In this document: positions 2,781 to 28,578 of the stretch, in pieces
How the letters are laid out: each line of letters starts with the position of its first letter
Position numbering within the stretch: position 1 is the stretch's first letter
Assembly: GCA_963664305.2 (NCBI GenBank)
Contig: CAXXLV010000002.1
Span: forward strand, 800,001-864,000
Reading direction: 5' to 3'
DNA: 64,000 bases
From: an uncultured Aliarcobacter sp.
GTDB lineage: Bacteria > Campylobacterota > Campylobacteria > Campylobacterales > Arcobacteraceae
Translations under genes and position numbers: made by a program
The notes under the pieces: generated by a model
Seen by the model: only the letters and a program-made list of their open reading frames with translations
What the model was told of the DNA's origin: nothing
Database searches by the model: none

Positions 2781-3533
2781 TTACAGATTTGAATAAATTT
2801 CATTTTCAATTAAAATATATTCATTCTCTGATAATTCATAGTTTATATCATAAGATGCACATATATTTTCTAATAAATTTTTTAAATAAACAATTGTATT
2901 TTTTGCTAAAAAATCATATTTAATATTTGGATTCATCTGTTTTATTTCATGTAAATATAACTCTTTTAATTCTTCTGAATTTGAAATATTTACAAGAGTG
3001 TTATTTAAAGCAATGATTTTTTCTTTTTTTAAAATCATTTTTGAAAATATTACTGGGTCTTCATGGATTGCAATAGCTATATCAAACAAATCTCTAGAGT
3101 TTCCAATATCTCCTCTATAATAAATTTTTTTAGCAATAATTTCTTCAATAGTATCAATTTGTATATCTTTATTCCATATATTAACTTTACAAAATGGTTC
3201 TTTTGATTTTTTCACTACATCAAAAAATTGAATTTTTGAGTCTTTATCGATAACAATTTCAGTATAAATATCGTTATGCCTAAAATTACCAGTAAAACCA
3301 ATAGAACCCATTTTAGATTTAATATTTTCACTCCAATTTGATGGTTTTAGCAAATGAGTTTTATTTTCATTTCCATAAATAAAAATATCAATATCAGTTG
3401 AATATCTATGATTCCAATAATATCCTGCTAATACAGTTCCACCACCTAAGCTTGAAATTTCTAATAGATTATTTTCTTTTAATAGTTCTAATGTAACATC
3501 TAGCATAGCTTTTTGTTTTGAAAAATCATACAT
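2781..3533 (-). CDS. AbiEii/AbiGii-family nucleotidyltransferase toxin
   Basis: LGGGTVL...HRYSTDIDIF, EEIIAKK and SRDLFDI motifs. Confidence 0.85.
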   Translation of the reverse strand: MYDFSKQKAMLDVTLELLKENNLLEISSLGGGTVLAGYYWNHRYSTDIDIFIYGNENKTHLLKPSNWSENIKSKMGSIGFTGNFRHNDIYTEIVIDKDSKIQFFDVVKKSKEPFCKVNIWNKDIQIDTIEEIIAKKIYYRGDIGNSRDLFDIAIAIHEDPVIFSKMILKKEKIIALNNTLVNISNSEELKELYLHEIKQMNPNIKYDFLAKNTIVYLKNLLENICASYDINYELSENEYILIENEIYSNL

Positions 3534-4044
3534 TTAAACTCTTTTTATTTAAAATATTTTGTAAAGCTGATGGAATAGATTTATTTAAATTATTTGTATT
3601 TGATTCAAAGTGTTTTAATCTAAATCTTTTATCCCATTTTTTTGCAATACCATCAATAGTTCTAAATGGACTTGTTATATAAATATTTTTAATATTACGT
3701 TTTGAAAGAGTGAATGTTGAAATAAAATCTTCTAATTCATCAATTTCTATTTCTTTAAAAAATTTCGAGTAAATAGTTTGTTCTTTAATATTTCCATCAT
3801 GATAATCTTGTTTTGAGAAAGCTTTTTTTATATCTTCATAAGTAAACTTTTCATTTTCAATATTTCTATTTAGAATATGAAAAAATCTATGATTTTCTTT
3901 TTTATTTAATATTTTTTCTACAAAATCAATTTCAAGATTTGATAATAATTCATAAAGTTTATTTCTATTACTACTTTCTTGTTTCCAATCATTTAATGTT
4001 GCAAATGGAATATCTAAATATTTACTAATTTCTATTTGTGTCAT
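3526..4044 (-). CDS. HTH protein, probable cognate antitoxin/regulator
   Basis: N-terminal HTH-like segment (QIEISKYLDIPFATLNDWK); overlaps the start of the AbiEii-like gene. Confidence 0.65.
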   Translation of the reverse strand: MTQIEISKYLDIPFATLNDWKQESSNRNKLYELLSNLEIDFVEKILNKKENHRFFHILNRNIENEKFTYEDIKKAFSKQDYHDGNIKEQTIYSKFFKEIEIDELEDFISTFTLSKRNIKNIYITSPFRTIDGIAKKWDKRFRLKHFESNTNNLNKSIPSALQNILNKKSLNV

Positions 4045-4485: not shown

Positions 4486-5040
4486 TTAATTTCTATTCAA
4501 ACTATCAATTAAAGTACTTCTTTTAACTCCAAATGTTTTACAAACAGCAGCTTTACTCATTCCATCTTCTAAAGCTTTTTTAATAGCAATCATTTTTTCA
4601 TCATCAATGGCTCTAGGACGTCCTCCTCTAATACCTCTTAGTTTTGCAGATTCAAGTCCAGCTTTTACTCTTTCTTGAATTAGACTTCTTTCAAATTGAG
4701 CTAATGCTCCAAAGATATGAAAGAATAATTCACCAGATGCTGTTGTTGTATCCATACCTTCTGTAATAGATACAAAAGAAATATTTCTATTTTTTAAATC
4801 TGTAATAATATTTATTAAATGAGCTAAACTTCTTCCAAGTCTATCTAGTTTCCAAACAACTAAAGTATCACCATCTTTTAAAAACTCTATTGCTTTATCA
4901 AGCCCTACTCTTTTATCTTTTGCACCAGATGTTTTATCTGAAAATATATTTCTTTCATCTACTCCATATTTTATTAATGCATCTTTTTGTAAATTTAGAT
5001 TTTGTTCATCAGTTGAAACTCTAACGTAACCTATTAACAT
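4486..5040 (-). CDS. Serine recombinase (resolvase/invertase family)
   Basis: GYVRVSTDEQ, VVWKLDRLGRS and GGRP motifs plus a C-terminal HTH; 184 aa. Confidence 0.95.
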   Translation of the reverse strand: MLIGYVRVSTDEQNLNLQKDALIKYGVDERNIFSDKTSGAKDKRVGLDKAIEFLKDGDTLVVWKLDRLGRSLAHLINIITDLKNRNISFVSITEGMDTTTASGELFFHIFGALAQFERSLIQERVKAGLESAKLRGIRGGRPRAIDDEKMIAIKKALEDGMSKAAVCKTFGVKRSTLIDSLNRN

Positions 5041-6051: not shown

Positions 6052-6582
6052 CTATATAACTTGAAACTCTATATTTTCTTCCTCTAAAAAATCTTCTGGA
6101 AAAGCATTTGTTTGAATCTCATTTTTAACTAACTTTTCTAAAAAAGTACTCATATTCATCTCAAAAACATCTTCTTTATTGTAATCATTATCATATATCC
6201 CTACTTTCCAATTATTTGGATTTTTATTTTTTTCATAAATCCAAAACAAGTAGTCTCCATTATCAGTAGCCCCCCAAATAATTAGTGAATGGTTCTCAGG
6301 AAAAGGAGGTCTAAGATAATTTTCAGGAAAATCTTTTTTTAATTCATTATAAGCCAAATAAAAGAACTTCATATCATCTAAAAGATTCCCATTTTTTGAG
6401 AATGGATTTAAAACCCATAAAAAATTTCCTATACGACCCATTCCATATCTCATAATAAATTCTTTATAATCAGCAGGAAGTGTTGTACCCATTTTTTCTT
6501 CTACATTTTCCCACTCTTTTGGGTCTCCAGTTTCAACAGGATTCATTGGTGGTTTCATTACTTTTATCAAATTTTCTATCAT
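6052..6582 (-). CDS. SMI1/KNR4 (SUKH) family immunity protein
   Basis: WENVEEKMGTTLPADYKEFIMRYG and WGATDNGDYLFW motifs. Confidence 0.85.
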   Translation of the reverse strand: MIENLIKVMKPPMNPVETGDPKEWENVEEKMGTTLPADYKEFIMRYGMGRIGNFLWVLNPFSKNGNLLDDMKFFYLAYNELKKDFPENYLRPPFPENHSLIIWGATDNGDYLFWIYEKNKNPNNWKVGIYDNDYNKEDVFEMNMSTFLEKLVKNEIQTNAFPEDFLEEENIEFQVI

Positions 6583-6830
6583 TATTTTTTTCCATTTACA
6601 TTTGGTATAGATACATCTAATTTAAAGCCATTGGAACCTGTTGCGCTCATGGTACCTGTTGGCATTGGATTATTGTCAATATATATTGGAACAACTCTAT
6701 AGTTTACTGTTTCTCCATTTTTTACTGCTTGTTGTACTTTAGTTTCAAATGAACGCATTGTTGCTGTATTTACACTTTGTTGATATAAAGTAACAAGGTT
6801 TTTATTATCATTTCCAGAACCACCAAGCCG
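6582..6830 (-). pseudogene. 5'-truncated DNA/RNA non-specific endonuclease toxin tip
   Basis: Hand translation RLGGSGNDNKNLVTLYQQSVNTATMRSFETKVQQAVKNGETVNYRVVPIY...LDVSIPNVNGKK*; its TAA overlaps the ATG of the SUKH gene (TAATG). Confidence 0.75.
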
Positions 6831-6849
6831 GTATTTTTAATATGATAAT

Positions 6850-7338
6850 CTACTCCTCTGTATACTCATATAAAGAATCCATAAATTCTTCAAAGTTATT
6901 GCCTAAAAATGAAATTATTAAATTACCATTTTCATCATCTGCATCATGATGAACCAGTACAATTTTTGGATTATCACTTTTTAAATCATCTCTATAATCA
7001 AAGCATATGTAATCTCCATTTGGTGTCCCTCCAAATGGAATGATTCCTTCTTGAAAATCTTCGTTATCCATTAAAAAGTACACCATAGAACTACTACTAT
7101 CATCTAATTCATACTTATTATTTTCTTTAAAAAAATAAAAATAAATAAAATTACCTTCATTTTTTTGAATAACTTCATCATAATAATCAAATGCACTTTT
7201 TTTAAATCTTAATCCATTATGTTTAGATAATAACTCTTTATATTCTAATGGAAAATTATAATTTACAAGTTTTTCATATTCTTCAATAATTTGACTTCTA
7301 AGTTTTCCACTTTCTCTATAAATTTTTAAATCTTGCAT
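6850..7338 (-). CDS. SMI1/KNR4 (SUKH) family immunity protein
   Basis: IEEYEKLVNYNFPLEYKELLSKHNG, IIPFGGTPNGDYICFDYR and NFEEFMDSL motifs. Confidence 0.9.
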   Translation of the reverse strand: MQDLKIYRESGKLRSQIIEEYEKLVNYNFPLEYKELLSKHNGLRFKKSAFDYYDEVIQKNEGNFIYFYFFKENNKYELDDSSSSMVYFLMDNEDFQEGIIPFGGTPNGDYICFDYRDDLKSDNPKIVLVHHDADDENGNLIISFLGNNFEEFMDSLYEYTEE

Positions 7339-10938: not shown

Positions 10939-13900
10939 ATGTTTATAAGAAGAAAATTTCAGAATATTGAAGATGTTAATAATCAAGTTACTTTTGATAT
11001 TATAATTCAGAACACTATATCAGTAATATTAGGTGAACCTGCATCAGGTAAAACATTTCAATTAAAAAACTATTCCTTTGGTAAAGAAAACATTCTTTTT
11101 AAAGAACTTGTTAATATAGAATTAGAAGAAATTAATATAGATAGTATAGAATTAATCTTTTTAGATTCTATAGATGAAGCATTAAGGGATACTTCTTCAA
11201 TATCTATGAAACAACTTCAAGATAAATTAACTAAATATATCAATAAATGTAAAGAAATAAATCCAAGTATTAAATTTGTTCTTACTTGTAGACAACTTGA
11301 ATGGAATGCATATTTTGCAAATAGTATTAAAGAAATTGATAATTCATTAAAAGTTTATAAAATTCTTGATTTAGAAAAAGCACAAATAGATCTTATATTA
11401 ACAGAAAAGCAAATTGATAATTCTGAATTTTGGAGTTTTATTTCATCTAACTATTTAGATTTTTTACTCAAAAATATTCTAGTGATTTTTAGAATTATTA
11501 ATAACTATAATGAATATAAAACAAAAACTGTTAACTATACAGATATTTATATTGATATTATAAAAGAACATTTAACAGTTAAAGGTGATGATAGAGATGA
11601 ATTAGTTACACAAAAGTCATTAACTGAATTAATAGATATATCATCTTCTTTAGCTACTTATATGATTTTAAATAGACAATCAACAATATCGACTGATGAT
11701 AATTTAAGTATATTAACAGATAAATTATATATGGTTAATATGAGTCTTATTAGCATTGATGATTTAAAAATAATACTTAATTCTTCACTATTTGATAAGG
11801 AAGGAAATAGTTTTAGTTTTTTTCATAAATCAATGCAAGAGTTTCTTATGGCTTACTTTATCAATAAAAAAAGTCTTAATTTAGAAACAATAAAAAAAGT
11901 TTTTTCTCATGAAATGAGATTTTATGAAGAATTTGAAGAAATTATTATTTACTTGACAAATTTAAATAACTCTTTTTTTAATGAAATTGTTAACTTTGAT
12001 CCGTTGATTTTTAGAAGACATCCAAATTTAAATGCAGAGCAGCAAGAAAAACTATTAGAAACTATGCTTAATAAACTTAAAATAGAAAAATCAATTATAT
12101 ATGGGAAATGGAATTATTTTGATAATAATTCACTTTTAAATTTTAACAAGCTTTCTAATATATCTCATATTGTAAAAGAAAATATTAATGAAAATCATCT
12201 TGACAAAGTTTTATATACTTATTTAATTAAACTTTTACATTACAACTATCATCAAGAGTTAGAAGAAGTAATATTCAAAATCTTAGAGGACTATAATAAA
12301 TCGCAGAATAATCAGCAGAAAAAAGAACCATCAGAAGATAGTGATGTTATTAAAGGCAATGTAAAAACTCGTGAACTTATAGTTGATACATTTGTCGATA
12401 ACTTTAATATAAATTGTAGATTATATGATTTTATGAATAAAAATGGTTTATTGAATGAAAATATTCATAAAATCTCTATGGTAAGTTTTGAAGCAAAACT
12501 TTTTGAATCACTTTACGGTATAAAATATAGTAATAGATATTCAAATCCTAAAAAAGTAACTGTCAATTCTACAAACTATTCTTTTGAAGAACTTTTACAG
12601 TTATTATTAAGTATTCCATATAGAGATTTACAATATATTGTTCCATTTTTAAAACAAAAGGATAGTCTAAAATGGTTTGAGTTTGTAAAAAGCCAAAAAA
12701 AAGTAAATTATGAAATTAATCTTTGGGCTATTTATGGGTTACTATTACACAATAATTCAAAAGAAGCAGTAAAGTTAGTCTTTGAATATTTATCAAGACC
12801 TATGGTATATCTACACATAGAAAAACAGGATATTGAAGATATGCCTTTTGAATTTAAAAAACTTGCAGATGATTTTTGGGAAGTTTATTTTCAAATGCAT
12901 GTAGATAATGTCTATTCTTTTACTGGTATATTTAAAATACTTCATATTTCTTTAGATGATATAATAAAGGCTACTGAAAAATATCCAATTGAAAAATATA
13001 CTAAATATTATGTACCACTTAGATTAAGTGAGAATATTGATGAATTTTTGATGTCAAATAGTATATTTGAATTATATATTCAGCAGTTAAAAAAAGAGCA
13101 AAAAGAAAGACAAAAAAAATGGGATGAGGAGTATAAAAAGAAAAAAAAAGAGATTGAACCAACTGAGCCCTCTGAATCTTTAAAAAGTATAATAGCAGCT
13201 AAAGAAATATATGATGAAAGTAAAAAATCATTAGAAACATTTCAAGATATTTTTAATGTTTTTTTATATGAAAGAATGTATGAAGAAAAAAATGAGCACT
13301 TAATAGATGAAACATTTAATAAAGAACAAAAAGAACAATTATTCTCTTATGCCCATAATAATTTTAAACAAGATATAGATTATTTGAAATTTAAAGAAAA
13401 TGTTTATTCACATAGAGTAGATTTAACATGTCTTTATATTTGTTATTTAAAAAGACTTGATAATGAAAGCTTATTAAAATATGTAAATACAAAAGAAACA
13501 TACGAAAAAGTATATTGGCATGTATTTAGACTTTCAAAAATGGATGAATCTTTTTTTATATATTTAACTCAAAAATATTTTGATTTTTTTATAGAGTTAT
13601 TTACTGAAACATTTAAGCTTTCACTAGAACAAAGTAATAATACAAGGGCTGTTTCATTACAAGGATTTTTTAACCTAGTAGAAAAATGTGAGAAATTTAA
13701 TAAAAATACTTTATCTGAAGTAATCAAATTAATTAGTTCTCTTGATCCTCACATTTTTATTAATATAGAAACATACAATCAAAATGAACTTTTAAAAGTA
13801 TTAGTATTAGATCAAAGTATGTATGATTATATAGAATCTTTAATGAAGTATGACAATTTTAAGTCAAAAAAATATTTAGATACTTTATTAAAATTAGATA

Positions 13901-14493
13901 CTAAAAAAGCAATTGGCAACTATATGAATTTATATTTAGATGAAGAAAAATATATTAAAAAGTCGTTTTGGGAAAAAATTAAAAGTTTTTTTAAAAAAGA
14001 AGAAATTATAGAAGTGCATAAATATAATAACCCTTTAATTAATCCTATTAAGATTAACTTATTAATGAATCTACTTTTTTCAATAAGTTCATCAAAAAAA
14101 ATAGATTTAATTTCAGATGAATACTTAAATATAATTATTCAAGATTATTATGAATTTTTTAAAGAATATGAATTTCAAGAAGGAATAGTTCAATATCCTG
14201 ATTATGATAGTATGAATAATATTATCTATACTATTTGGTCGATACTTAGTGCTAGTAGTGACCATATCTTGTTATTAAAAGAATTATCATCAAATGAAAA
14301 TGACAGAATATCAAATGCAGCTAAGTTTTATTTGGATAAAGCATATAATCAACAACAAAAAGATAGAACTTTACCAAATAGTTATTATAAAGCAATATTT
14401 GATAGTGAAAAAAAGAATACAAAAAAAGTAGTTAATCAGGGAATATATATAGCAGGTAATGTTCAAGGTAATGTTACTCTTACAAAAAATTAG
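10939..14493 (+). CDS. NACHT/STAND-class NTPase (NLR-like), with no N-terminal effector and a C-terminal RHIM/amyloid-like motif
   Basis: Walker A GEPASGKT near residue 33, Walker B IFLDSIDE, FVLTCR, winged-helix motif FFHKSMQEFLMA, and a long helical C-terminal region. Confidence 0.8.
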   Translation: MFIRRKFQNIEDVNNQVTFDIIIQNTISVILGEPASGKTFQLKNYSFGKENILFKELVNIELEEINIDSIELIFLDSIDEALRDTSSISMKQLQDKLTKYINKCKEINPSIKFVLTCRQLEWNAYFANSIKEIDNSLKVYKILDLEKAQIDLILTEKQIDNSEFWSFISSNYLDFLLKNILVIFRIINNYNEYKTKTVNYTDIYIDIIKEHLTVKGDDRDELVTQKSLTELIDISSSLATYMILNRQSTISTDDNLSILTDKLYMVNMSLISIDDLKIILNSSLFDKEGNSFSFFHKSMQEFLMAYFINKKSLNLETIKKVFSHEMRFYEEFEEIIIYLTNLNNSFFNEIVNFDPLIFRRHPNLNAEQQEKLLETMLNKLKIEKSIIYGKWNYFDNNSLLNFNKLSNISHIVKENINENHLDKVLYTYLIKLLHYNYHQELEEVIFKILEDYNKSQNNQQKKEPSEDSDVIKGNVKTRELIVDTFVDNFNINCRLYDFMNKNGLLNENIHKISMVSFEAKLFESLYGIKYSNRYSNPKKVTVNSTNYSFEELLQLLLSIPYRDLQYIVPFLKQKDSLKWFEFVKSQKKVNYEINLWAIYGLLLHNNSKEAVKLVFEYLSRPMVYLHIEKQDIEDMPFEFKKLADDFWEVYFQMHVDNVYSFTGIFKILHISLDDIIKATEKYPIEKYTKYYVPLRLSENIDEFLMSNSIFELYIQQLKKEQKERQKKWDEEYKKKKKEIEPTEPSESLKSIIAAKEIYDESKKSLETFQDIFNVFLYERMYEEKNEHLIDETFNKEQKEQLFSYAHNNFKQDIDYLKFKENVYSHRVDLTCLYICYLKRLDNESLLKYVNTKETYEKVYWHVFRLSKMDESFFIYLTQKYFDFFIELFTETFKLSLEQSNNTRAVSLQGFFNLVEKCEKFNKNTLSEVIKLISSLDPHIFINIETYNQNELLKVLVLDQSMYDYIESLMKYDNFKSKKYLDTLLKLDTKKAIGNYMNLYLDEEKYIKKSFWEKIKSFFKKEEIIEVHKYNNPLINPIKINLLMNLLFSISSSKKIDLISDEYLNIIIQDYYEFFKEYEFQEGIVQYPDYDSMNNIIYTIWSILSASSDHILLLKELSSNENDRISNAAKFYLDKAYNQQQKDRTLPNSYYKAIFDSEKKNTKKVVNQGIYIAGNVQGNVTLTKN

Positions 14494-14517
14494 AACTTAA
14501 ATTATGGAGAATAAAGT

Positions 14518-15402
14518 TTGGCAAAAAAAGTAGAAAATGATGGTATTTATGTAGGGGGTGATGTCTATGGTGATGTATCTATGAATAAAGGGAATAATGA
14601 TAAACCTATCTGGAATACAATTGGAAAATGGGCTTCTATTGCTACACTAATAGGTTTCCTTTTATCTATTTATTTTTATTTAAATCCTATAGATATTAAT
14701 ACACAAAACAATGATAAGAAAGAAAGTGATTTACAAAGTCAAAATATTCAATCTCAACAAAACATTCATGGAGAGACTATAGTAGTAAATAATAATTATA
14801 AAGAGAATGTTATATCTGAAGAAACAATAACTGTTAATAAAGAAAAAAATCTTGAAAAAATTTTTATTGGAAGTGGACGTAAATTTATAGAAAGTTTATT
14901 TGGTATACCTATTATTGAAATTGATCATAAAGAACTTAATGTGATTGAAGTAAATTATTCATTTGAAAATTTCTATTTACAGTTTCTTTATAATACGATG
15001 GGTGAAGTTCAGTTTTACTCTGTAACATCAAAAAATGTTAACTTTAAACCTACTATACCATTATTTGATATCAAATTAGGCAATTATTCTTTTTATGAAT
15101 TTGGAAAAGATTCAACTTACCTTTATAGTTATTTAACTTCAAAACATTATGGATATGCAGAGTATATTTATGGAGGTAATAGTGGAAATTATCATAATTA
15201 TTACTTTGGCTATAATTCTGCAGGAGTAGATTATGGTGAAATATATCCTTTTACTAATCATGAAAATAAAAATGAATTAGAAAAGTTTCGTAAAACTTGT
15301 ATACCGAATACATTTGGAGTTGGGGATATAGGAAAGATTTCTGATGATAAATTATATTATGAGATGGGTATTGAATATTATACTTCAAGAGATATAAATT
15401 AA
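14518..15402 (+). CDS. Membrane-anchored protein with an N-terminal amyloid-like motif; C-terminal domain resembles the ETEC_3214 family
   Basis: TTG start after GGAG; TM segment WASIATLIGFLLSIYFYL; FG.P, YSVT, GNSGNY and PNTF motifs recalled from that family, not verified by search. Confidence 0.65.
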   Translation: MAKKVENDGIYVGGDVYGDVSMNKGNNDKPIWNTIGKWASIATLIGFLLSIYFYLNPIDINTQNNDKKESDLQSQNIQSQQNIHGETIVVNNNYKENVISEETITVNKEKNLEKIFIGSGRKFIESLFGIPIIEIDHKELNVIEVNYSFENFYLQFLYNTMGEVQFYSVTSKNVNFKPTIPLFDIKLGNYSFYEFGKDSTYLYSYLTSKHYGYAEYIYGGNSGNYHNYYFGYNSAGVDYGEIYPFTNHENKNELEKFRKTCIPNTFGVGDIGKISDDKLYYEMGIEYYTSRDIN

Positions 15403-16115: not shown

Positions 16116-17150
16116 GTGAAATTTCTATTTAGAGAATTATTTAAAAGATTAAAATTTAGATATGTAATATTAATTTTAGTATTGTCAATTCCTCTTAGTT
16201 ATGCTTTTCAATATGTAGTAAATGTAACTTTAATCTCAAAAAATGAATTTCCTTTAGATAAATCTCCAAATCCACAAGCAACAGAACATTTTATAAAAGC
16301 AATGGAATATAGAAATTATATTGCACATGTACATAACTTTGTAGATTATGATAATTTTTTAATCAAACCACTATTAACTAAAATGAATGAAGAATATGAA
16401 AAGGGAAAATCATTGCTTCCAAAAACTTCGGCAGAAGATGTATATTGGTATGTGATACTTTATAGAGGGATATATGGAATAGGAGGAATTCCAGATGATT
16501 ATGATATGTCAATGGCATATAAAACAACCTTGACAAAAGAAGAATATAAAAAACATTATGAAGAAATAGTTGATAAAATAAAAAGATTTGCAATAAATGA
16601 TTTTAATTATGATGTACCAAGAGTAACAAACTATAAATTTGAATTCATGAGTGATTTAGTAAATGAATATGATAAAACAGTAGGTTTATTAAGCAAAGAA
16701 TTTTTTGTTTCAAATAAGTATACACAAGATTTAAATGAGATATATATTTATTATAAGCAATTTAGAGATAAATACTTACCTTTGGCAAATAAACAAGATA
16801 AAAATAATCTTGTAGCACTTCATGACGAAATTTTATTTTTTTTAAAATTTATTACATATAAAGAATATCTTCAAAAAAGACAAATATATTGTAATGATGA
16901 AAAATATAAATTATTACTAACAAAAATGAAAGAACTAAAAAACTTAAAAACAAAAGAAAAACAAATGCTAGATGATTATATAGTAAATGTATTTGAAAAG
17001 AGTATTTGGCTTTATCAATTAACTTTAATGTTACAAGAATGCAAAAATTTAGAAAAAGAACCAAAAGAAATATTAGAGTATTTTCATCCAAAAATAAAAC
17101 AGAGATATGAAGAAGAGTTAAATAATTTTAAAAATAAATTAAAAGGCTAA
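16116..17150 (+). CDS. Hypothetical membrane-anchored protein, putative immunity partner of 17154-18626
   Basis: N-terminal TM/signal segment; ends 3 nt before the next gene. Confidence 0.65.
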   Translation: MKFLFRELFKRLKFRYVILILVLSIPLSYAFQYVVNVTLISKNEFPLDKSPNPQATEHFIKAMEYRNYIAHVHNFVDYDNFLIKPLLTKMNEEYEKGKSLLPKTSAEDVYWYVILYRGIYGIGGIPDDYDMSMAYKTTLTKEEYKKHYEEIVDKIKRFAINDFNYDVPRVTNYKFEFMSDLVNEYDKTVGLLSKEFFVSNKYTQDLNEIYIYYKQFRDKYLPLANKQDKNNLVALHDEILFFLKFITYKEYLQKRQIYCNDEKYKLLLTKMKELKNLKTKEKQMLDDYIVNVFEKSIWLYQLTLMLQECKNLEKEPKEILEYFHPKIKQRYEEELNNFKNKLKG

Positions 17151-17153
17151 AAC

Positions 17154-18626
17154 ATGGATACACAAGAATATCAAATTGGTACAAAAGCTTTTAGTAGTAA
17201 AGAAGAGTATGATAAATACCTCGAAATCTCTAATATGATTGATAAAATTTGTACAGTAGCAGATATCGTAAATACAGTAGCAAGTACAAATAAATATGTA
17301 AAATTGGCAATGAATTTTTGTGATGATAATGGCGAAATTTTAGATGTTATTGAAATTTTTTCTCCTGTTTTAGAAGAAGGACAAACAGAAAGAGAAATAT
17401 TTGCAAGTATTGGTTCAAAAATTGTTAAACTTGAAGTAGAAACAGCTTTTGAATCTATTGGAGAAACAGCAGGAATAAGTGTAGGTACAGGGTTAGTTTC
17501 TATTGGAGTTATAGGTACAGCAGGAATTGGAACTGTTCCTGCATATATAATGGGAGCTGCTACTGGTGGTGCAACATATTTAGGATATAAATTTGTAGGA
17601 GTAGGAGTTGGACATTATGCAGAAAAATACTCTTATGGAGAATTTTTAGAATTATATGATAAATATGTAAAAAATACTGAAGAAAATAATAAACATGCAG
17701 AAAGTGCAGTATTTCTTGATAGTTCAACAAACGAAAAAACTACATTTGAAATAAATCAAGAAACAGTAGTATTAGAACCAATTATTGTACAAGACTTAAC
17801 AACTGGCTCAATAGTTTCTTTAAAATCAGGACAAACAATTTCCCATATAGCAGCAAATACAGAATTTACAACAATGGATTTACTGAAATATAATAATCTT
17901 ACCCTAGAACAAGCAAAAAATTTTCCAATAGGTTTTGAAATACAAATTCCAAAAAGTATAGAGAATTTTGATGGTGGATATGGAAATATAAAATTATATA
18001 CATCATACGATGGAACTCTTACATATTATATTCCAGATGAAAAAGGTAATGTAAATGTAATAAAAATTAATAGTGATGGAGAAATTTTACAGAACGATTT
18101 TGATACAAATGGAACATTGTTAGATGAAATAGTAGTAAATCCAAATGATAATCAATCATATAATGATGCAAAAACAATGGAAGAATTGTTGAAAGACCCA
18201 AATAATCTAGTAAAAATAGATGATGGGATATTGTATGCAGATAGTGGACAAATAAAAACTGATGTAAATTATGATAAAGATAGCCAAACCTTGTTTTATG
18301 AAGATGAAAATGGAAATCTTCAACAAATAACATATGAAGAGAATAGTGACTTACTAATCTATGGAGATACTAGTAACCCAGATAAAATAACCTTCACAGA
18401 TGAAAATGGAGATTATCAAGTATGGGAGAAAGATAATGAGGGTAACTTTGTACAAACAAATAAAGTAGATTATTCAGGAACTCTAAATACAGCAATAAAT
18501 CAAATAGGAAGCTTGATTATAATGAATAATCAAGATTTCTCTAATATAGAGAAAATTGCTGTAAGTACAACAGTATCAACTATCGCTGATTTTGCAACAT
18601 ATAAAACAAAAAGGAAGATATTATGA
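17154..18626 (+). CDS. LysM-containing putative effector with Gly-rich hydrophobic N-terminal helices and an acidic C-terminal region
   Basis: LysM-like LKSGQTISHIAA...LLKYNNL...PIGFEIQIP; Gly/Ala-rich hydrophobic stretch at about aa 105-155; shares an 81-bp repeat with the lysozyme gene. Confidence 0.65.
   Translation: MDTQEYQIGTKAFSSKEEYDKYLEISNMIDKICTVADIVNTVASTNKYVKLAMNFCDDNGEILDVIEIFSPVLEEGQTEREIFASIGSKIVKLEVETAFESIGETAGISVGTGLVSIGVIGTAGIGTVPAYIMGAATGGATYLGYKFVGVGVGHYAEKYSYGEFLELYDKYVKNTEENNKHAESAVFLDSSTNEKTTFEINQETVVLEPIIVQDLTTGSIVSLKSGQTISHIAANTEFTTMDLLKYNNLTLEQAKNFPIGFEIQIPKSIENFDGGYGNIKLYTSYDGTLTYYIPDEKGNVNVIKINSDGEILQNDFDTNGTLLDEIVVNPNDNQSYNDAKTMEELLKDPNNLVKIDDGILYADSGQIKTDVNYDKDSQTLFYEDENGNLQQITYEENSDLLIYGDTSNPDKITFTDENGDYQVWEKDNEGNFVQTNKVDYSGTLNTAINQIGSLIIMNNQDFSNIEKIAVSTTVSTIADFATYKTKRKIL
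18237..18317 (+). repeat. 81-bp perfect direct repeat, copy 1 (copy 2 at 19927-20007)
   Basis: Identical DNA encoding ADSGQIKTDVNYDKDSQTLFYEDENGN in two different ORFs. Confidence 0.95.
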
Positions 18627-19297
18627 AAAAAATATTTTTAATTTTACTATTCTTTAATATATATTTAAATGCAGATGAAAATATAAAGTTTTATAATCCA
18701 AGTTTTAGTTGTGATAAAGTTAAAAAAGATAGTGTGGAATATGAAATTTGTATTGACGAAATACTATCCTTGCAAGATTTAATTTTGACAAATAACTATA
18801 ATTCTTTAATTAAATTAACAAAACTTAATACAAATAAAATAAAAGATGAACAAAAAACTTGGTTAATAAATAGAAAACAGTGTAAAGATTATAAATGTAT
18901 AAAAATATCTTATGAAGAAAGAATAAAACAGCTCAATTATATTTATGAACTATTTATAAAAAATGATTTTCTTCCATTGGAAAAAATAAATATAGCTAAT
19001 CCAGATGAAGAACAAAATAATATTACTTTAAAATATAATTTTGTTTGTAAACCTAATAAAGATTTACCCATAATTGCAAGAGATAAAGACTTTTATTTTA
19101 TAGAAAACTTAAGTAATTATCAAGATAGAAATTTTATTTTTTTTGTAAAAAGTACTTTTATTGATGAAATATCAAATGAACAAATATTAAAAGGAACTCT
19201 TATATTTGATGGTGGACAAACTTACCAACCAACAGCAATAGATTTTTTTACTTATAGTAAAAATTGGGATTGTGAATTAAATACTTCTAAATATTAA
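18623..19297 (+). CDS. LprI-family lysozyme-inhibitor domain protein, secreted
   Basis: Signal peptide; PSFSCDK...EYEICID...LSLQD...EQKTWLINRKQC...CIKISYEERI pattern. Confidence 0.8.
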   Translation: MKKIFLILLFFNIYLNADENIKFYNPSFSCDKVKKDSVEYEICIDEILSLQDLILTNNYNSLIKLTKLNTNKIKDEQKTWLINRKQCKDYKCIKISYEERIKQLNYIYELFIKNDFLPLEKINIANPDEEQNNITLKYNFVCKPNKDLPIIARDKDFYFIENLSNYQDRNFIFFVKSTFIDEISNEQILKGTLIFDGGQTYQPTAIDFFTYSKNWDCELNTSKY

Positions 19298-19302
19298 AGG
19301 AA

Positions 19303-20037
19303 TTGATTATGGATAATATGAAAGTATCAGAGCAACTTAAAGATTTTATAAAAAATTATGAGAAATTAGAACTAAAGACATATCAAGATGAAGCTGGAGT
19401 TTGGACAGTAGGATATGGGCATACTGGTAAAAATATTGTTAAGAATATGACAATAACACAAAGCCAAGCGGATAGTTTCTTATCTAATGATTTAAGTAAA
19501 TTTGAAAGTACAGTTAATCAATATGTGAAAGTTCCACTTTCACAAAATCAATTTGATGCTCTAGTCGCTTTTTCTTATAATATAGGTATGGGTGGATTTA
19601 AAAATTCTACATTATTAAAACTATTAAATAATAGTGATTACGAAGGTGCTAGTTTAGAATTCCAGAAGTGGAATAAAATAACAATTAATGGTGAAAAAAA
19701 AACTTCTGATGGTTTATCTGTTAGAAGATATGATGAAGAAAATATTTTTAAAGATAATATTTATAATAGAACAGATATTGAAACTTATAGGCAAGAATTA
19801 TCTAAAGAAAATAATAATGAATCATCTACTGATACAGGAAATAATGACCAAGCTAATAATGATACAGAATATATGAAAGACCAAGATGGGAAAGATATAC
19901 CAGATATAAAAGATGGGACCTTAGTAGCAGATAGTGGACAAATAAAAACTGATGTAAATTATGATAAAGATAGCCAAACCTTGTTTTATGAAGATGAAAA
20001 TGGAAATTATCAAGTTTGGGAAAAAAAGGTTGCATAA
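19303..20037 (+). CDS. GH24 phage-type lysozyme fused to an acidic repeat tail
   Basis: IKNYE...YQDEAGVWTVGYGHTG, LSQNQFDALVAFSYNIG and GLSVRR motifs. Confidence 0.9.
   Translation: MIMDNMKVSEQLKDFIKNYEKLELKTYQDEAGVWTVGYGHTGKNIVKNMTITQSQADSFLSNDLSKFESTVNQYVKVPLSQNQFDALVAFSYNIGMGGFKNSTLLKLLNNSDYEGASLEFQKWNKITINGEKKTSDGLSVRRYDEENIFKDNIYNRTDIETYRQELSKENNNESSTDTGNNDQANNDTEYMKDQDGKDIPDIKDGTLVADSGQIKTDVNYDKDSQTLFYEDENGNYQVWEKKVA
19927..20007 (+). repeat. 81-bp perfect direct repeat, copy 2
   Basis: Identical to 18237-18317. Confidence 0.95.
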
Positions 20038-20738
20038 TGGAAGTAAATGATAAAAAGAATATTGAATTAGTACCAGATAAAGATGGATTTTTATTTGAAA
20101 TTGAGGACTATAACTATTTATTAAATAGAATTTGTGGATGGATTGGAGTTGTTGTCGGAAGTCTTTTTATTTTATTTTATTATAAAAATGGAGATATTTT
20201 AGCATTAAGAAATGACGGTCATAGAGGATACTTAATAGTAACAATAGGAGGGACATATATTATCTTTGAAGCCATAAAAGTGCTTATGTATGTTTTAAAA
20301 GATAAAAAGGAAAAAATAAAATTTTATATAGACTATATTTATAGAACAAACAATAATCTAAAAGTTCCTCTTACAAATATTGAAGAAGGATATATCGCAA
20401 AATATAATACATTTTCAAATAAAATTCCATGGAGAATTAGTGTTTTATCAACAATCATAGCTTTTGTATTAGGAGGGTGTATCGTTTTATTTCTTTTTTT
20501 AATAGGTCGATTTATTTACTCTATATTTAAAGGAAAAAAATATACTTTAGAGACCAATAATTTAATTTTGCTTCAAGATAATTATAATAGATATTGTATC
20601 TCTATTTCATTAAATATTGCTACACAAGATGAAATAGAAAAATTAAATCAATATCTCAATCAATATCTTCACACAGATATAAATAAAATGGAAAAGATTC
20701 TTTATAAAATACCTGAATTTAAAAGGAGTAACTTATGA
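20016..20738 (+). CDS. Hypothetical membrane protein, putative immunity protein (likely start ATG 20037)
   Basis: Three hydrophobic segments; its stop overlaps the next ATG (ATGA). Confidence 0.65.
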   Translation: MGKKGCIMEVNDKKNIELVPDKDGFLFEIEDYNYLLNRICGWIGVVVGSLFILFYYKNGDILALRNDGHRGYLIVTIGGTYIIFEAIKVLMYVLKDKKEKIKFYIDYIYRTNNNLKVPLTNIEEGYIAKYNTFSNKIPWRISVLSTIIAFVLGGCIVLFLFLIGRFIYSIFKGKKYTLETNNLILLQDNYNRYCISISLNIATQDEIEKLNQYLNQYLHTDINKMEKILYKIPEFKRSNL

Positions 20739-21098: not shown

Positions 21099-24000
21099 TT
21101 AATCATGAATTATTTTATAATAATTTCTATATTCAGTTTTTTCACGTTCACCACTATAACTTAATTTTTTTACGCCATTTGGAAAATATCTTTTTTCAGT
21201 CCATACTAACCAAATTAATCGTTTGTTTTTTTCTTCAAGGTACTTTTCTAAATAATCTTTTCTGATATAAGTAAATGTAGATTTGTTATCAAAATCTTCT
21301 CCAAATTTAAAAGATGTTGATATTATTCCTCCATTTTGATTATATAAATTTGAACTTTGAGGTTTTAAATATATTCCAAGATTATTAGAAATATTTTTTG
21401 AAGGAACAATTGTCTCTCCTCTTGAAATAATTTCACTATGATAACTTTCCCAAGAATTTTTAAAAATTGTTGTTTCTAAATTTATTTCAATACTATCATT
21501 TTCTCGTTCAAAATATGTAATATCAATATATTTAGTTCTAAAACCCATTGATTCTGCAATTTTTTTTGTTCGTTCCTCATCATTATTATGTAGAAGAGAA
21601 ATATTTAATTTAAAATCATCGTTATTGATTTTATCCCAAACATCTTCTAAATATTCTTTTTCTTTTTTTTCTAATTCAACAAACTCAACTTCCGATAATT
21701 CTATGCCATTATTGAAAATTTTCAATTCTTTTTTTATTCTTTCCACATCATGATGATTATAAGAAATTTGAAAATTTTTTGAATAATTATAAGGTATTAA
21801 ATCACACCAAGGGATTTCACCGTCATATATATAATGTTCTTCTAAATTTTCTAAATAATCAAAACTATAATCATTATATGTAGCTGTTAAGTTTTTGATT
21901 TTTTTATATTCTTCTTCGTCCAGCAAAACTGCATTTATAGAAATATGAACATCTCTAGTTTGGTCTTCTTTATCCTTTTGAGATATAGAACCCTTTAAAA
22001 GAAGCCAATCATTTTTTTCGTTAGTTCCTAAATGACTATTTAATTTAATATAATCACTAATATCTAAGTCCTTATCATTTGAATACCATGTTACAGCTTC
22101 TTTTTCTAAATCTCCTAAAAAGTTATTCTTATTTATTTCTTCAAATAAATTATATTTTCTTAATTCAATAGGAAAACTCGGGTCAATATCTGTATCTGAG
22201 ATTCTTAATTCATCTTCATTTTCCCACTTTTTTAGTAAACCTAAATCACTTCTATATCCTGCCATTTCATAAAATGCAATCCAAGAATATTTTTTGCCAT
22301 ATCTATCTATTTTACCAGCACTTTCATTATTTGAATAACGCCAACTATCATCTCCAATTTGTTTATCAATTTTTCCAAATTTTGTAAATAAATATCCTAA
22401 ATTATACATTTTCCAATAAATTTGAGATAACATGAGTTTATATTCTTTATGTCCACTATCATAATTACTTCTTCCCTCTATCAATCTACCAATAGTATAA
22501 TTTTCAAAATCCATATGAATAGGTGTACCAAATCTATATTTTAATTCTTTGTAGTTTGGTATTATCCCCCATTCTTTGTGATAGTAGTTCTTTAAAGGAT
22601 ATTTAATTAACTCCTTTTCTGAATCAGTTAATAAACTAGAATGATGAATTAGTGCTATATCTATAGTTCTTTTTGCATAATCTCTAGTTAAAATATGTGT
22701 TGTAGGATATTTTGCTTTACTTGAAAACATATTATCAAAAAGAAAATTCCCATATAATGGTAAATATTCTTTTCTATATCTTTCATCATCGAAATCATTT
22801 TGTCTAGCCATTGCTAGCCCATAAGTTACAGCTAACATTCTTTCAACTACATAAGGGTCATTAATATCAATTGAATATTTTAATAAGTCTAAAAATTCTT
22901 TTGGGTATTTTCTTGCATAATAATATAATCCTCTTGTTGCTTCATCTCTAAGTCTTCTTATATTTGTAGTAAAAACCCACATAACTTTTTTAGCACCTAT
23001 GTGAATTCTATTAGATATTTGTTCTTGTTCTCTACATGCCTTTTCAAAATTATTAATAAATCCTGTAAAATATGAATTATCATACCAAGAATGATTTTTT
23101 CTTATATATTCACTCCAAAACAAATCTCTTTCCAACATTGATAAGTTTTTAAGTAAATTAGACCAGAAATTAAAATTTAAAGGATGATTAATATCAAATT
23201 CTACATTTGTAGACAGACTAAATAAATGATTTTTATTAGATAAAAATTCATTTTCTAAAAAGTTTTTTATTAACTTTTCATTTTTTTTAATAAACTTAGA
23301 GTTGATTTCAAAAAGAGACTCAATTGAATATTTTTTTGCTCTTTCATTCTCTAGTGTGTTAAATAAAAAAATATTAGCCTTTTTTATAATTAAAATAGTA
23401 ATCGTCCTAAGAATATCATCGTACAAAGGATGTTCTGTATTTTTTTCTAAAAGTTTTTTTCTAAAATCTTTTGATTTTACAAATTTTAATAAAGGTTCTT
23501 TTTTCCCTATTCTTTTATTTATATTATTTAGCCCATTTTCAATTAGCTCAGTCCCTCTCTCTGGTATGAAGAATTCAAGCCCTGTTTTTATTGAGTTAAT
23601 AAACCAATTATTTGATTTATATTTTAAGTATGGATAATATTCTTCATATGCTTGAATAAGATACTTAGAAATGAGATAACCACCTAATAAATCGTAGGTA
23701 AATTGTATTTCCTCTTTATCGTTCTTTGTATTCCAATCTCTATAGATAAGTAGGTTTTCTCCTTCAAAAACTCTTAACTCATCATCACTAAACAGTTTTT
23801 TAGAACGAGGCATTCCTCTAGTATTATTTTCCCAAAAATATTTAGAAAGTTGCAATAACTTGCTTTGTGTAAAGTCATTATTATACTTTGGGTCAAGTTC
23901 TTTTAATAAAGTTGTTATATTTTCATTACTTAATTGGATATATTCATCAAAAACATCAAATAAATCTTCCTTCTGAAATGATACTTTAACTACTTTATTA

Positions 24001-26964: not shown

Positions 26965-28230
26965 GAGATATATTGTAATATATTTCAAAGAGTTTGTTGT
27001 TGATATATCGGTGCTACACAAAGCAGTAAATCTACTAGCTTGTTATTTAGTCAGATAGTTATACTTCAAATTTGAGTGGCGACAAGATAAGTTTAAAACT
27101 ATTTCGAATTCACGAGTAAAAGTTATGTATAACCATTCAGCTAGGAGTAAATACTCCTAACCTAACGAACTCTTCATGCTTTAATACGGAGGTTCTTTAA
27201 ATGTATTCTATCGGATTAGATGTAAGCAAGTCAACAATTAATTGTTATATTCCCAATGGAGAAATTAATTTAGTAATAGATAATAATGAAAAATCATTAA
27301 ATCAATTTTATTTAAAACTTAAAAAGATTTATAAAAAAGATATTAATAAAATAGTTTTTATTTTTGAACCTACAGGAAGCTATTCTAGTTTATTAAAAAG
27401 TTTTTGTACCAAAAAAAGTATCAAAGCTTTTATCGTAAATCCAAAACAAAGTCATAACTTTGCAAAAGCTATAGCTCAAAGAAATAAATCAGATAAAATT
27501 GATGCACAAGTTTTATCAAAGATGATTTCTATTGCAACAAATAGTGATATTAAAGTTCCTGTATATGATGAAAATATAGAAAATATAAAAGATTATATGA
27601 GTTATTATAAGTTTGTTGTAAAGGAACTTGTACAAGCAAAAAATGTTCTTGAAGCAATGAGTAATAGCCAAACAAATAAGTATATTTTAAATTCACTAGA
27701 AAAGAAAATTGATGCTTTGCAAAAAGAGTCTTTGAAAATAATTGAAAAAATAAAAGAAATCATTTCACAAGATCCTTTTTTATTACAATCTTTTAATAAT
27801 ATTAAAACTATTAAAGGTGTTGGAGATATAACTGCTATTGTACTTTTACATCTATTTTTAAAGCAAATAATATCTTTAACAGGATTAGAACCAATAGCAA
27901 AATCTTCGGATAGTTCTATTAAATCAAAACCTAAAATATCAAAAGCTGGTTTAAATTATATAGAGGAACCATATTTATGAGTGCATTAAGTATAATAAGA
28001 TTTAATCCTAAGATTAAAGAATTTTATAATCGTTTAAAAGAGAATGGTAAACAATCAACCTTGGCTCAAGTTGTAGTTATGAGAAAATTAATTATTATTG
28101 CCCATTCCTTGTATAAAAATAATCAGGAATATATTAATTAAAATCATCAATAAAAGATTTTAATTTTTAAGGTGGCGACTAAATAGATCTTAGAAACAAA
28201 ACAACCTCTTGACTCAATATTAAAACTAAC
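26965..28230 (+). mobile_element. IS110-family element, degenerate (ends approximate)
   Basis: Transposase pseudogene with a structured 5' noncoding region of about 215 bp and imperfect subterminal inverted repeats aagagtttgttgtt / aacaaaacaacctctt. Confidence 0.7.
27201..28141 (+). pseudogene. IS110 transposase, frameshifted
   Basis: IGLDVSK, FEPTG and KSDKIDA (DEDD) motifs; the C-terminus continues in another frame (RGTIFMSAL...VMRKLIIIAHSLYKNNQEYIN*). Confidence 0.85.
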
Positions 28231-28290
28231 ACCTTTTAGACCATAATACTAGATAATATTTTTACTAATTTTCTAAATCTTAATGTCATA

Positions 28291-28464
28291 TATTAACTCC
28301 AATTATTTTAATTAAAAAATCAAATATAATAAAATAAATGCTAAAAGTATTAAAAAAAGCCAATCAATTATTTCAAATTTAGTTTGATTCATAATTAACC
28401 TTATCAAATTTTTTTATAAGATTAAATATTATCAGATAAAATACTCACTATTTACTTTTTTTAT
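28291..28464. repeat. Direct repeat of about 170 bp, copy 2
   Basis: Contains the minus-strand ORF 28312-28392 MNQTKFEIIDWLFLILLAFILLYLIF*. Confidence 0.8.
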
Positions 28465-28578
28465 TAATTAAAAAATAAATATAATTTTCTACAACTTACA
28501 AAACTGCAAAACTTATCAAAGATTGATATCGAAGAGCTTTCTTAATTATTTTGAAGAAAATTTAATAATCTCTTTAAA

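Follow-up and report, generated by a model that had tools for sequence, protein, structure and literature searches.

What could connect a large STAND NTPase that has no effector domain at its N-terminus with the small membrane protein encoded immediately downstream of it? This question is raised by a locus on contig CAXXLV010000002.1 of an uncultured Aliarcobacter sp. (assembly GCA_963664305.2). The stretch analyzed, hereafter the window, covers 64,000 nucleotides, corresponding to positions 800,001 to 864,000 of the contig. In this locus, the last residues of the STAND protein and the first residues of its partner carry the same short motif, which is here called the tag. An earlier note, written from the letters of the sequence, proposed that the two genes constitute an amyloid-signaling defense system with the motif positions reversed in comparison with known systems. 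The reading favored here, with moderate confidence and by analogy with known systems, is that the genes form a two-gene module of the nucleotide-binding oligomerization domain-like receptor (NLR) type. Its tags would couple by cooperative, amyloid-like co-assembly after the STAND protein oligomerizes, clustering the transmembrane (TM) segments of the effector.

The last 23 aa of the STAND protein are aligned without gaps to residues 3–25 of the partner, and 12 of the 23 residues are identical. BLASTP between the tail and the partner N-terminus gives 12 identical residues and 17 positives over 24 positions, with E = 2e-4 as a single comparison. When the last 40 aa of the STAND protein are compared with the first 40 aa of the partner, the best ungapped BLOSUM62 score is 67, which is reached by none of 5000 shuffles (mean 20.9, maximum 49). 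Of the 1622 pairs of adjacent open reading frames (ORFs) on the same strand in the genome (2.78 Mb), the window pair ranks first, well ahead of the second-best pair with 40; the median score is 18. A regular expression of the motif is found only at these two sites in the six-frame translation of the whole genome. The terminal match, reported already in the earlier note, is not due to chance.

Different codons are used at 4 of the 12 identical residues of the window pair, as had been noticed before, and at 4 of the 14 identical residues of another pair described below (L130). These synonymous differences argue against a fresh duplication. The two in-frame stops, TAG and TAA, and the GGAG ribosome-binding site (RBS), which had been pointed out between the genes, are present, and the RBS lies 8 nt ahead of the TTG start codon of the partner. 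The common reading frame of the two genes is nothing but coincidence, because the frame offsets are 2, 1, and 1 in the related pairs L125, L126, and L127. A copy with ~99% identity spanning both genes is seen in contigs from three metagenome runs (wastewater, abattoir, and seawater). In these copies, the tag differs by a synonymous change only. No joined form of the two genes is seen in the contigs of the three runs that bridge both genes. Read-through or fusion of the two genes was considered and rejected on the basis of the different frames in L125, L126, and L127 and of the lack of joined contigs. One possibly RNA-derived run covers only two pieces of the partner gene, which has no bearing on expression.

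Similar pairs are present elsewhere. In total, five tagged STAND/partner pairs from four lineages were found: the window pair, L125, L126/L127, and L130. All are collinear, the gaps between the paired genes are 8–31 nt, and an RBS-like purine run is seen in the other pairs too. The DNA pattern for the tag, K-x5-G[IV][YF][IV]xG[ND]VxG[ND][IV], was searched in the JGI metagenome collection. It hits exactly three metagenome loci, each with two matches on the same strand 43–63 nt apart. In all three (L125, L126, and L127), a STAND homolog ends with the first match, and the product of the next gene has the second match at its N-terminus. In viral contigs, the tag is found at no locus. The STAND family is rare and patchy, being present in 3 of 401 genomes of the class and 7 of 184 genomes of the family. 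The family-wide search yielded the fifth pair, L130, in a species genome. The STAND protein of L130 ends with ..TIHNYGNYAETNIGKMSLK, and 8 nt downstream a 138-aa protein with four TM helices (4-TM) starts with MENKTIHNYGNYAEENNGEM.

The tag of L130 diverges from the window type, yet it is common to both genes of the pair (score 79, reached by none of 2000 shuffles). The non-cognate scores of the L130 tags are 17–32. No other of the 24 permutations across the four lineages scores as well as the cognate assignment. Adjacent homologous pairs, here four in addition to the window pair, thus keep terminal motifs that co-vary. All five pairs have the same polarity: the STAND protein bears the motif at its C-terminus and the partner near its N-terminus, the reverse of what is known from described systems. 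The tag starts at residue 9–10 in all eight motif-bearing partners listed, and the motif core starts 16–19 aa from the C-terminus in the five STAND proteins aligned. In both L126 and L127, the two tag copies contain a nearly identical run of ~33 nt with at most one mismatch. The features of the window pair are summarized in Table 1.

Table 1. Features of the tagged STAND/partner locus (positions in the window)
Feature	Position	Strand	Basis or remark
STAND (NACHT-like) NTPase gene	10939..14493	+	1184-aa ORF
Walker A GEPASGKT, STAND residues 32–39	11032..11055	+	Invariant across 18-member alignment
Walker B region D76-S-I-D-E80, STAND	11164..11178	+	Invariant across 18-member alignment
C-terminal putative coupling motif of STAND, KKVVNQGIYIAGNVQGNVTLTKN, Asn-rich version	14422..14490	+	Match to partner motif
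27-nt intergenic spacer: stop TAG, in-frame TAA, RBS GGAG (14506–14509)	14491..14517	+	
Partner gene, 294 aa, TTG start: motif, TM helix, Q/N-rich linker, ETEC_3214 domain	14518..15402	+	
N-terminal putative coupling motif of partner, KKVENDGIYVGGDVYGDVSMNKG, Asp-rich version	14524..14592	+	Match to STAND tail
Single TM helix of partner, residues 32–55	14611..14682	+	AF2 helix, hydropathy
Q/N-rich low-confidence linker of partner, residues 56–100	14683..14817	+	pLDDT, sequence
Globular alpha/beta ETEC_3214 domain of partner, probably extracytoplasmic, BLIP/BamE/DUF4309-like fold	14818..15399	+	

TTG, preceded by a purine-rich RBS, is the start codon in each of the four GxY-type partners (window 14518; L125:2037; L126:1868; L127:624). 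The start codon of the L130 partner is ATG. Weak TTG initiation may keep the effector scarce.

Judged by sequence comparison, the large protein is a STAND (NACHT-like) NTPase, as it was called in the earlier note. Its residues 13–314 match the NACHT region of NCBIfam NF058535 (EruA) with E = 1.2e-19 and 70 bits, and its relatives score 73–99 bits. The protein is not an equivalog of EruA, considering the curated cut-off of 1000 bits and the restriction of the match to residues 13–314. The EruA profile in the EruA/HyoA NACHT group of NCBIfam is aligned from its position 11, so the NTPase is N-terminal there too. The homologs P0049 and P0051 match Pfam nSTAND3 with 40–43 bits, above the gathering cut-off of 27.2. 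The nearest Atlas clusters to the STAND protein are nSTAND3, NACHT, and nSTAND_NTPase4. NCBI names the Aliarcobacter homologs "NACHT domain-containing protein". The named homologs originate from Aliarcobacter and Malaciobacter, in agreement with the Campylobacterota host that had been presumed. The Walker A and D-S-I-D-E motifs are conserved without exception among the aligned family members. The window protein itself has no significant match in Pfam or PADLOC, including Pfam NACHT, and no TPR, WD, or LRR-type repeats are found by the Pfam scan. The STAND-family profile has no match among PDB sequences, and hhalign of the family with the neighboring Avs2 gives nothing (E = 0.11).

A long helical region extends past the NTPase in the window protein, which lacks an enzymatic output domain. 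Because the NTPase is located at the extreme N-terminus, there is no N-terminal effector domain, and the earlier observation on this point holds. Based on the sequence comparison, this STAND family has its output end at the C-terminus, because a 4-TM domain or a TM module is fused there in relatives. The tails of the 45 STAND-family proteins listed were read after the conserved SYYKxIFD anchor. Seven end in the tag 28–41 aa past the anchor. A fused TM helix with a Q/N-rich stretch and a helical tail is seen in 24 proteins (18 by the anchored rule and 6 by eye), and a fused 4-TM domain in five (three by the anchored rule and two by eye). Two proteins have a short basic extension, four have a larger soluble domain to which no family is assigned, and three are truncated. 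Where the flanks were inspected, the genes of this family are single insertions amid housekeeping genes. P0048 (1180 aa, JGI), a STAND relative, ends in another terminal G/N/V tag (..ISGTVHGAVVNNGNVTINKK..).

Three types of partner bodies are present behind the tag: a TM helix with an ETEC_3214 domain (window), a TM helix with a DUF3298 domain (L125), and a 4-TM protein (L126, L127, and L130). The DUF3298/RsiV-like domain of L125 is recognized by Pfam with 30 bits against the cut-off of 24.1. Only the motif and the TM helix are common to the window and L125 partners (residues 1–60, E = 5e-19). Between the split 4-TM protein and the C-terminus of P0026, a fused protein, the identity is 41% over 138 aa (E = 7e-27), and the alignment begins inside the tag. 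Because of this homology, it can be said that the same effector exists in both fused and split forms. Between the STAND region and the effector, the fused 4-TM forms contain a single G/N-rich segment that is tag-like but more degenerate, and the fused forms with TM and Q/N stretch contain no tag. No fused relative shows an internal duplication of the motif, though all-in-one fused relatives exist. The 4-TM domain matches weakly the TM part of the PADLOC effector model PDLC00730 (description: TIR; E = 5.5e-5), which we take to be a CBASS effector. It also matches SLATT_1 weakly (E = 0.03). From these sequence resemblances, an effector role of the partners is plausible.

The partner in the window was modeled with AlphaFold2 (AF2) from a 60-sequence alignment (mean predicted local distance difference test (pLDDT) 80.8). 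The model bears out the layout described in the earlier note: the motif, one TM helix, a Q/N-rich stretch, and a globular domain. Residues 1–30 are disordered, and the pLDDT of the motif is below 50. The block pLDDT is 85–92 over residues 41–60, which overlap the TM helix, and the hydropathy reaches its maximum (1.59) at residues 40–58. In the linker, the block pLDDT is 40–57 over residues 61–100, and residues 63–84 are below 50. The globular domain (residues 101–294) is of the alpha/beta type and is modeled with pLDDT above 90. NCBIfam NF043066 (ETEC_3214_dom) matches residues 108–269 with 131.6 bits against the cut-off of 35 (E = 2e-38). The domain match and the TM helix of the model agree with the proposed bitopic membrane protein.

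The VIA-align Z-scores of the partner fold are 9.2 to 4ifa_A and 4ygt_A, 9.1 to 4h0a_B, 7.8 to 2qzb_B, 7.6 to 3d4e_A, and 7.1 to BamE 7txx. The domain is thus likened to extracytoplasmic BLIP-like, DUF4309, YfeY, and BamE folds, with Z-scores of 7–9 that are borderline according to VIA-align. Foldseek with the partner model gives nothing at E ≤ 1e-3, and the partner profile finds only BamE-like matches among PDB sequences (E = 0.14–1). Comparison of the window partner with Pfam and PADLOC gives nothing significant. Library scans assign the partner to no Bell or HeLo family, and it is not established whether these libraries include a Bell model. The first 60 residues score at most 0.79 against Atlas.

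The relatives of the ETEC_3214 domain comprise 136 representatives at E ≤ 1e-3, and their N-termini mostly fit a TM helix followed by the domain. The N-terminal tag is seen among them only in the window type and the L125 type, the latter being matched through residues 1–70 alone. TIR_2 is fused to the ETEC_3214 domain in 2 of 12 longer relatives scanned. These two, P0069 and P0110, consist of an N-terminal TIR_2, a TM helix, and ETEC_3214, which ties this otherwise uncharacterized domain to immune-type architectures. The gene after which the domain is named, ETEC_3214, likewise encodes a TM segment at the N-terminus, and its function is unknown (PMC5554520).

A second Q/N-rich element, (N)QSPIIQ-x-N-x-GN-h, recurs just past the TM helix in the ETEC_3214 relatives P0065, P0067, P0059, and P0145. 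The same type of element is seen in the fused STAND tails of P0024 and L002:1420-5448. It occurs therefore in tag-less ETEC_3214 proteins and in fused STAND C-termini alike. The window partner has QNIQSQQNIHGETIVVNNNY at the corresponding position, which is expected to be on the far side of the membrane. Homology between the window partner and the TM + Q/N tail of P0024 was considered. It is not claimed here, because the similarity is not significant (E = 0.26).

The tag is 22 aa long, strictly terminal, and flanked by Lys at both ends. Its core reads G-I-Y-[IV]-x-G-[ND]-V. The core of RHIM is the I/V-Q-I/V-G tetrad, and no such core is present in the tag. For either protein, no RHIM or other amyloid-motif family is found in Pfam at E ≤ 1, with HMMER filters dropping weak matches. 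The label of RHIM, given to the motif in the earlier note, is therefore not supported, and the nearest published motifs are a subgroup of cluster C02 of the bacterial amyloid signaling sequences (BASS). The two sides of the tag are not equivalent. Each tag of the four GxY-type pairs has two G[ND] positions, which makes eight per side: seven of the eight are N in the STAND proteins, and seven of the eight are D in the partners.

A scan of genome contigs with the bare motif, which is not exhaustive, gives at least 120 matches. Most of the matches listed belong to one conserved Bacillota enzyme of ~410 aa, presumably homoserine dehydrogenase, with an internal NGI[FY]V.GNV.GDVMF stretch. Seven Streptomyces loci (L034, L052, L053, L073, L092, L101, and L109) are also among the matches listed. 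In all seven, a small helical protein is encoded upstream, and the next ORF encodes a TM-containing protein whose N-terminal tag matches the tail of the small protein (scores 57–65). The pair of L052 is located at L052:4409-5645, and there is no NLR within the L052 locus. In L034, a second motif pair (GDNNAPIQNVAG type) is seen just upstream, again from a C-terminus to an N-terminus; this arrangement is suggestive of tagged proteins acting as a relay.

The tails of L052 and L034 are near-identical to C02_s168 and C02_s065, which belong to the Bell-side BASS training set (supplement 1, PMC8086366). We infer that C02 corresponds to BASS2, because the C02 numbering passes 300 and only BASS2 has 329 members. 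The window tags are aligned to the C02-set Streptomyces Bell tails without gaps over 14–17 residues (scores 34–42, reached by 0–4 of 2000 shuffles), these tails having been reached via a window-derived pattern. This alignment, with the Streptomyces loci reached in that way, suggests a link of the tag to the amyloid-signaling class. In composition, the tag contains 14% G, 15% N, 16% V, and 10% I (55% in sum), 0% P, and 0.7% L. Its proportions of Q (1%) and of K (12%, in the flanks) depart from the published BASS bias. This bias is described as enrichment of G, N, Q, V, and I and depletion of P, L, and K (Dyrka et al., bioRxiv 10.1101/2020.01.06.895854).

The pair is located in a defense island, as had been proposed, and the island is a mobile one. 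AbiEii, a resolvase, two SUKH proteins, a phage-lysozyme/LprI cluster, Avs2, IS110, and an integrase are encoded within ~20 kb. A full-length Avs2-type STAND gene (1546 aa, 21102–25739 (-), PADLOC E = 8.5e-132) is 6 kb apart from the pair. Upstream of the pair, an AbiEii nucleotidyltransferase toxin gene is present at 2784–4044 (-) (Pfam E = 1.7e-7), and the overlapping 172-aa ORF upstream of it is a possible antitoxin gene. A serine resolvase gene is at 4489–5040 (-). Two SUKH-1/SMI1-KNR4 immunity-type proteins are encoded in tandem at 6055–7338 (-), and one of them matches the PADLOC candidate PDC-M40A (E = 9e-7). Downstream of the pair, a co-oriented cluster (16116–20735 (+)) encodes 344-aa and 490-aa proteins of no family, an LprI-like protein that weakly matches the lysozyme-inhibitor fold, a lysozyme of the phage type (Pfam E = 5e-45), and a 240-aa ORF product. 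This cluster is possibly a separate toxin/immunity or lysis module. An IS110-family transposase gene (+) and a tyrosine integrase gene (-) at 27201–29904 are probable markers of an island edge. No tRNA gene is found in positions 1–40000 of the window, and scans for promoters and terminators give results no better than those for shuffled sequences. tblastn of the window partner against plasmids and phages gives no match.

How could the tags work? In the favored reading, the cytoplasmic STAND NTPase would be the sensor, with an output end that holds only the 22-residue beta-prone tag. The downstream bitopic membrane protein would be the effector, with the matching tag on its cytoplasmic N-terminus. 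Binding of a trigger and oligomerization of the STAND protein would bring the Asn-rich tags together into a small nucleus of the cross-beta (amyloid-like) kind, onto which the Asp-rich partner tags could then dock or stack. Clustering of the partner TM helices would damage or re-wire the envelope, resulting in abortive infection. We infer the oligomerization, the cross-beta state, the direction of signaling, and the membrane damage; the nucleation of amyloid by the tags would be analogous to that in described systems. A more far-reaching version can also be speculated. It is prion-like amyloid signaling in mirror image in unicellular Campylobacterota, in which the Asn-rich tags at the NLR C-terminus would template the Asp-rich tags at the N-terminus of the membrane effector. 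The Asn/Asp asymmetry would then serve as a safety catch against self-nucleation of the effector. This version is put forward tentatively and with some doubt.

Several points weigh against amyloid-like coupling. Gene conversion between adjacent repeats could partly explain the co-variation, considering the ~33-nt run in L126 and L127. The Asp-rich effector tag and the Lys-rich flanks would argue against open-ended growth of an in-register homopolymer. The pairs represent four lineages only, all from one bacterial family or from related metagenome contigs. We know of no toxic activity for the ETEC_3214 and DUF3298 ectodomains. No PADLOC model matches the STAND protein or the window partner, and the antiphage role is suggested by the genomic context and by distant family names. 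Finally, because the fused 4-TM relatives keep one tag-like G/N-rich segment, the tag could be a mere linker or a docking strand. A stoichiometric docking tag would form a constitutive small hetero beta-sheet, like a mini effector-associated adaptor, replacing the covalent link of the fused relatives. Activation would then be ordinary STAND oligomerization of pre-bound effectors, without templating or prion-like growth. Retention of the tag-like segment as a linker fits this alternative. The Asn/Asp asymmetry (7 of 8 on each side) favors hetero-pairing over homo-stacking, and homotypic adaptors, the principle of effector-associated domains (EADs), are established in bacterial conflict systems (PMC8195603). 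However, a stable 1:1 complex would be rare for two disordered 22-residue peptides (pLDDT below 50), and the fused relatives with TM and Q/N stretch have no tag. The length, the composition, and the alignment to the C02 tails point to the amyloid-signaling class. A docking tag is considered unlikely, though deserving attention.

The information might also flow in the reverse direction, from the membrane protein as an envelope sensor or anchor that recruits or activates the STAND protein via the tag. In favor of such a flow, the ectodomains resemble binding modules rather than enzymes (Z-scores of 7–9 to BLIP-like, DUF4309, and BamE folds), a DUF3298/RsiV-like domain is present in the L125 partner, and the STAND protein has no recognizable output domain. 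The 4-TM partners, however, have no ectodomain at all. The same C-terminal position is occupied by 4-TM, TM, or soluble fusions in relatives, a pattern of swappable effectors, and a partner acting as the sensor would leave the system without an output. This direction is regarded as improbable. Far less probable still is that the repeat is a functionless relic of fission, a short duplication at the split, or only a substrate for recombination that re-fuses the genes. Recombination between codon-aligned repeats would generate an in-frame fusion with one tag, as in P0026-type proteins, and the repeats are at the gene junction in every pair. Nevertheless, both genes have retained the tag in four lineages with a STAND identity of 36–59%, and with synonymous differences, and the divergent variant of L130 is altered on both sides. 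Moreover, the metagenome contigs that bridge both genes contain no joined form. Amyloid-like co-assembly with the STAND protein as the sensor is compared below with published systems.

In the amyloid signaling described in the sources consulted, the motif is at the N-terminus of the NLR and at the C-terminus of the effector, and the screens are built accordingly (Dyrka et al., bioRxiv 10.1101/2020.01.06.895854; PMC12261475). The window pair resembles the BASS1-10 Bell/NLR pairs (bioRxiv 10.1101/2020.01.06.895854) in several aspects. A motif of ~20–25 aa is common to adjacent collinear genes, one of which encodes a STAND NTPase. The motif is rich in G, N, V, and I and poor in P and L, fused counterparts exist, and the motif-coding stretches are at the gene junction. 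The window tag is aligned without gaps to a subgroup of the C02 tails, C02 being probably BASS2. Unlike in those pairs, the motif of the window is at the sensor C-terminus and the effector N-terminus. No Bell domain and no TPR or WD repeats are detected in the window pair, and the effectors of the window type are TM + ETEC_3214, TM + DUF3298, or 4-TM proteins. In the BASS pairs published so far, TIR2, CHAT, hydrolase, and cyclase effectors occur as well (bioRxiv 10.1101/2020.01.06.895854). The host of the window pair is a unicellular member of Campylobacterota, whereas the BASS pairs are mainly from filamentous Actinobacteria and Cyanobacteria.

Bab/Agp (BASS11) of E. coli ECOR25 demonstrates that a shared amyloid motif of ~20 aa can run an antiphage abortive infection (Abi) system (bioRxiv 10.1101/2024.11.07.622273). 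Like the window pair, it is a two-gene defense system in a defense island, the motif of ~20 aa is common to a sensor and a membrane-targeting executioner, and the host is a unicellular, proteobacterium-like bacterium. It differs in that the sensor has the motif at its N-terminus and Bab at its C-terminus, and Bab is a small Bell-like helical domain. Its amyloid state is shown by experiment, whereas the window pair is known from its sequence. In fungal NWD2/HET-S and other amyloid pairs of an NLR and an effector, similarly, the cognate motif of a membrane-targeting effector is templated by the NLR, and all-in-one architectures are known alongside those with two components (PMC12261475). The polarity is opposite to that of the window pair and the domains are different; the window effector is without the pseudo-repeat of the motif.

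Other bacterial systems share parts of this organization. The bNACHT proteins (Kibby et al., bioRxiv 10.1101/2022.07.19.500537) contain an antiphage-type NACHT-like NTPase, and some have effectors or TM segments at the extreme C-terminus. A two-gene form with a shared tag is not described in the accessible part of that preprint. EADs (Kaur et al. 2021, PMC8195603) are homotypic adaptors with a terminal bias, placed on the core NTPase and on separately encoded effectors. They are folded, mostly alpha-helical, and Death-like, unlike the window tag, which is a disordered, beta-prone stretch of 22 residues with no Pfam family. C-terminal effectors and TM segments in bacterial NACHT proteins, and the principle of homotypic adaptors, are thus already known. 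Our literature search found nothing on amyloid motif pairs of reversed polarity, in a comparison that did not cover Table S2 of the BASS preprint, whose motif pairs might include such cases. The search also found nothing on amyloid signaling in Campylobacterota and no paper on EruA or HyoA antiphage proteins.

The five pairs would represent the amyloid-type logic of NLR and effector at the opposite termini, with new membrane effectors. If prion-like signaling in mirror image is true, amyloid signaling motifs would be junction modules that are independent of orientation. Screens limited to the N-termini of NLRs and the C-termini of effectors would then have missed an entire class, including the Streptomyces pairs in which a Bell protein (C02) precedes an N-terminally tagged TM protein. 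Motif screens can be extended to any C-terminus compared with the N-terminus encoded by the next gene. The system is small and tractable, consisting of two genes and a 22-residue tag with natural tag variants and natural fused controls. The difference between Asn on the sensor and Asp on the effector leads to a hypothesis on how spontaneous firing may be avoided. For the family itself, these pairs point to a STAND clade with a C-terminal output end, originating from a unicellular lineage outside the phyla in which BASS pairs have mainly been reported.

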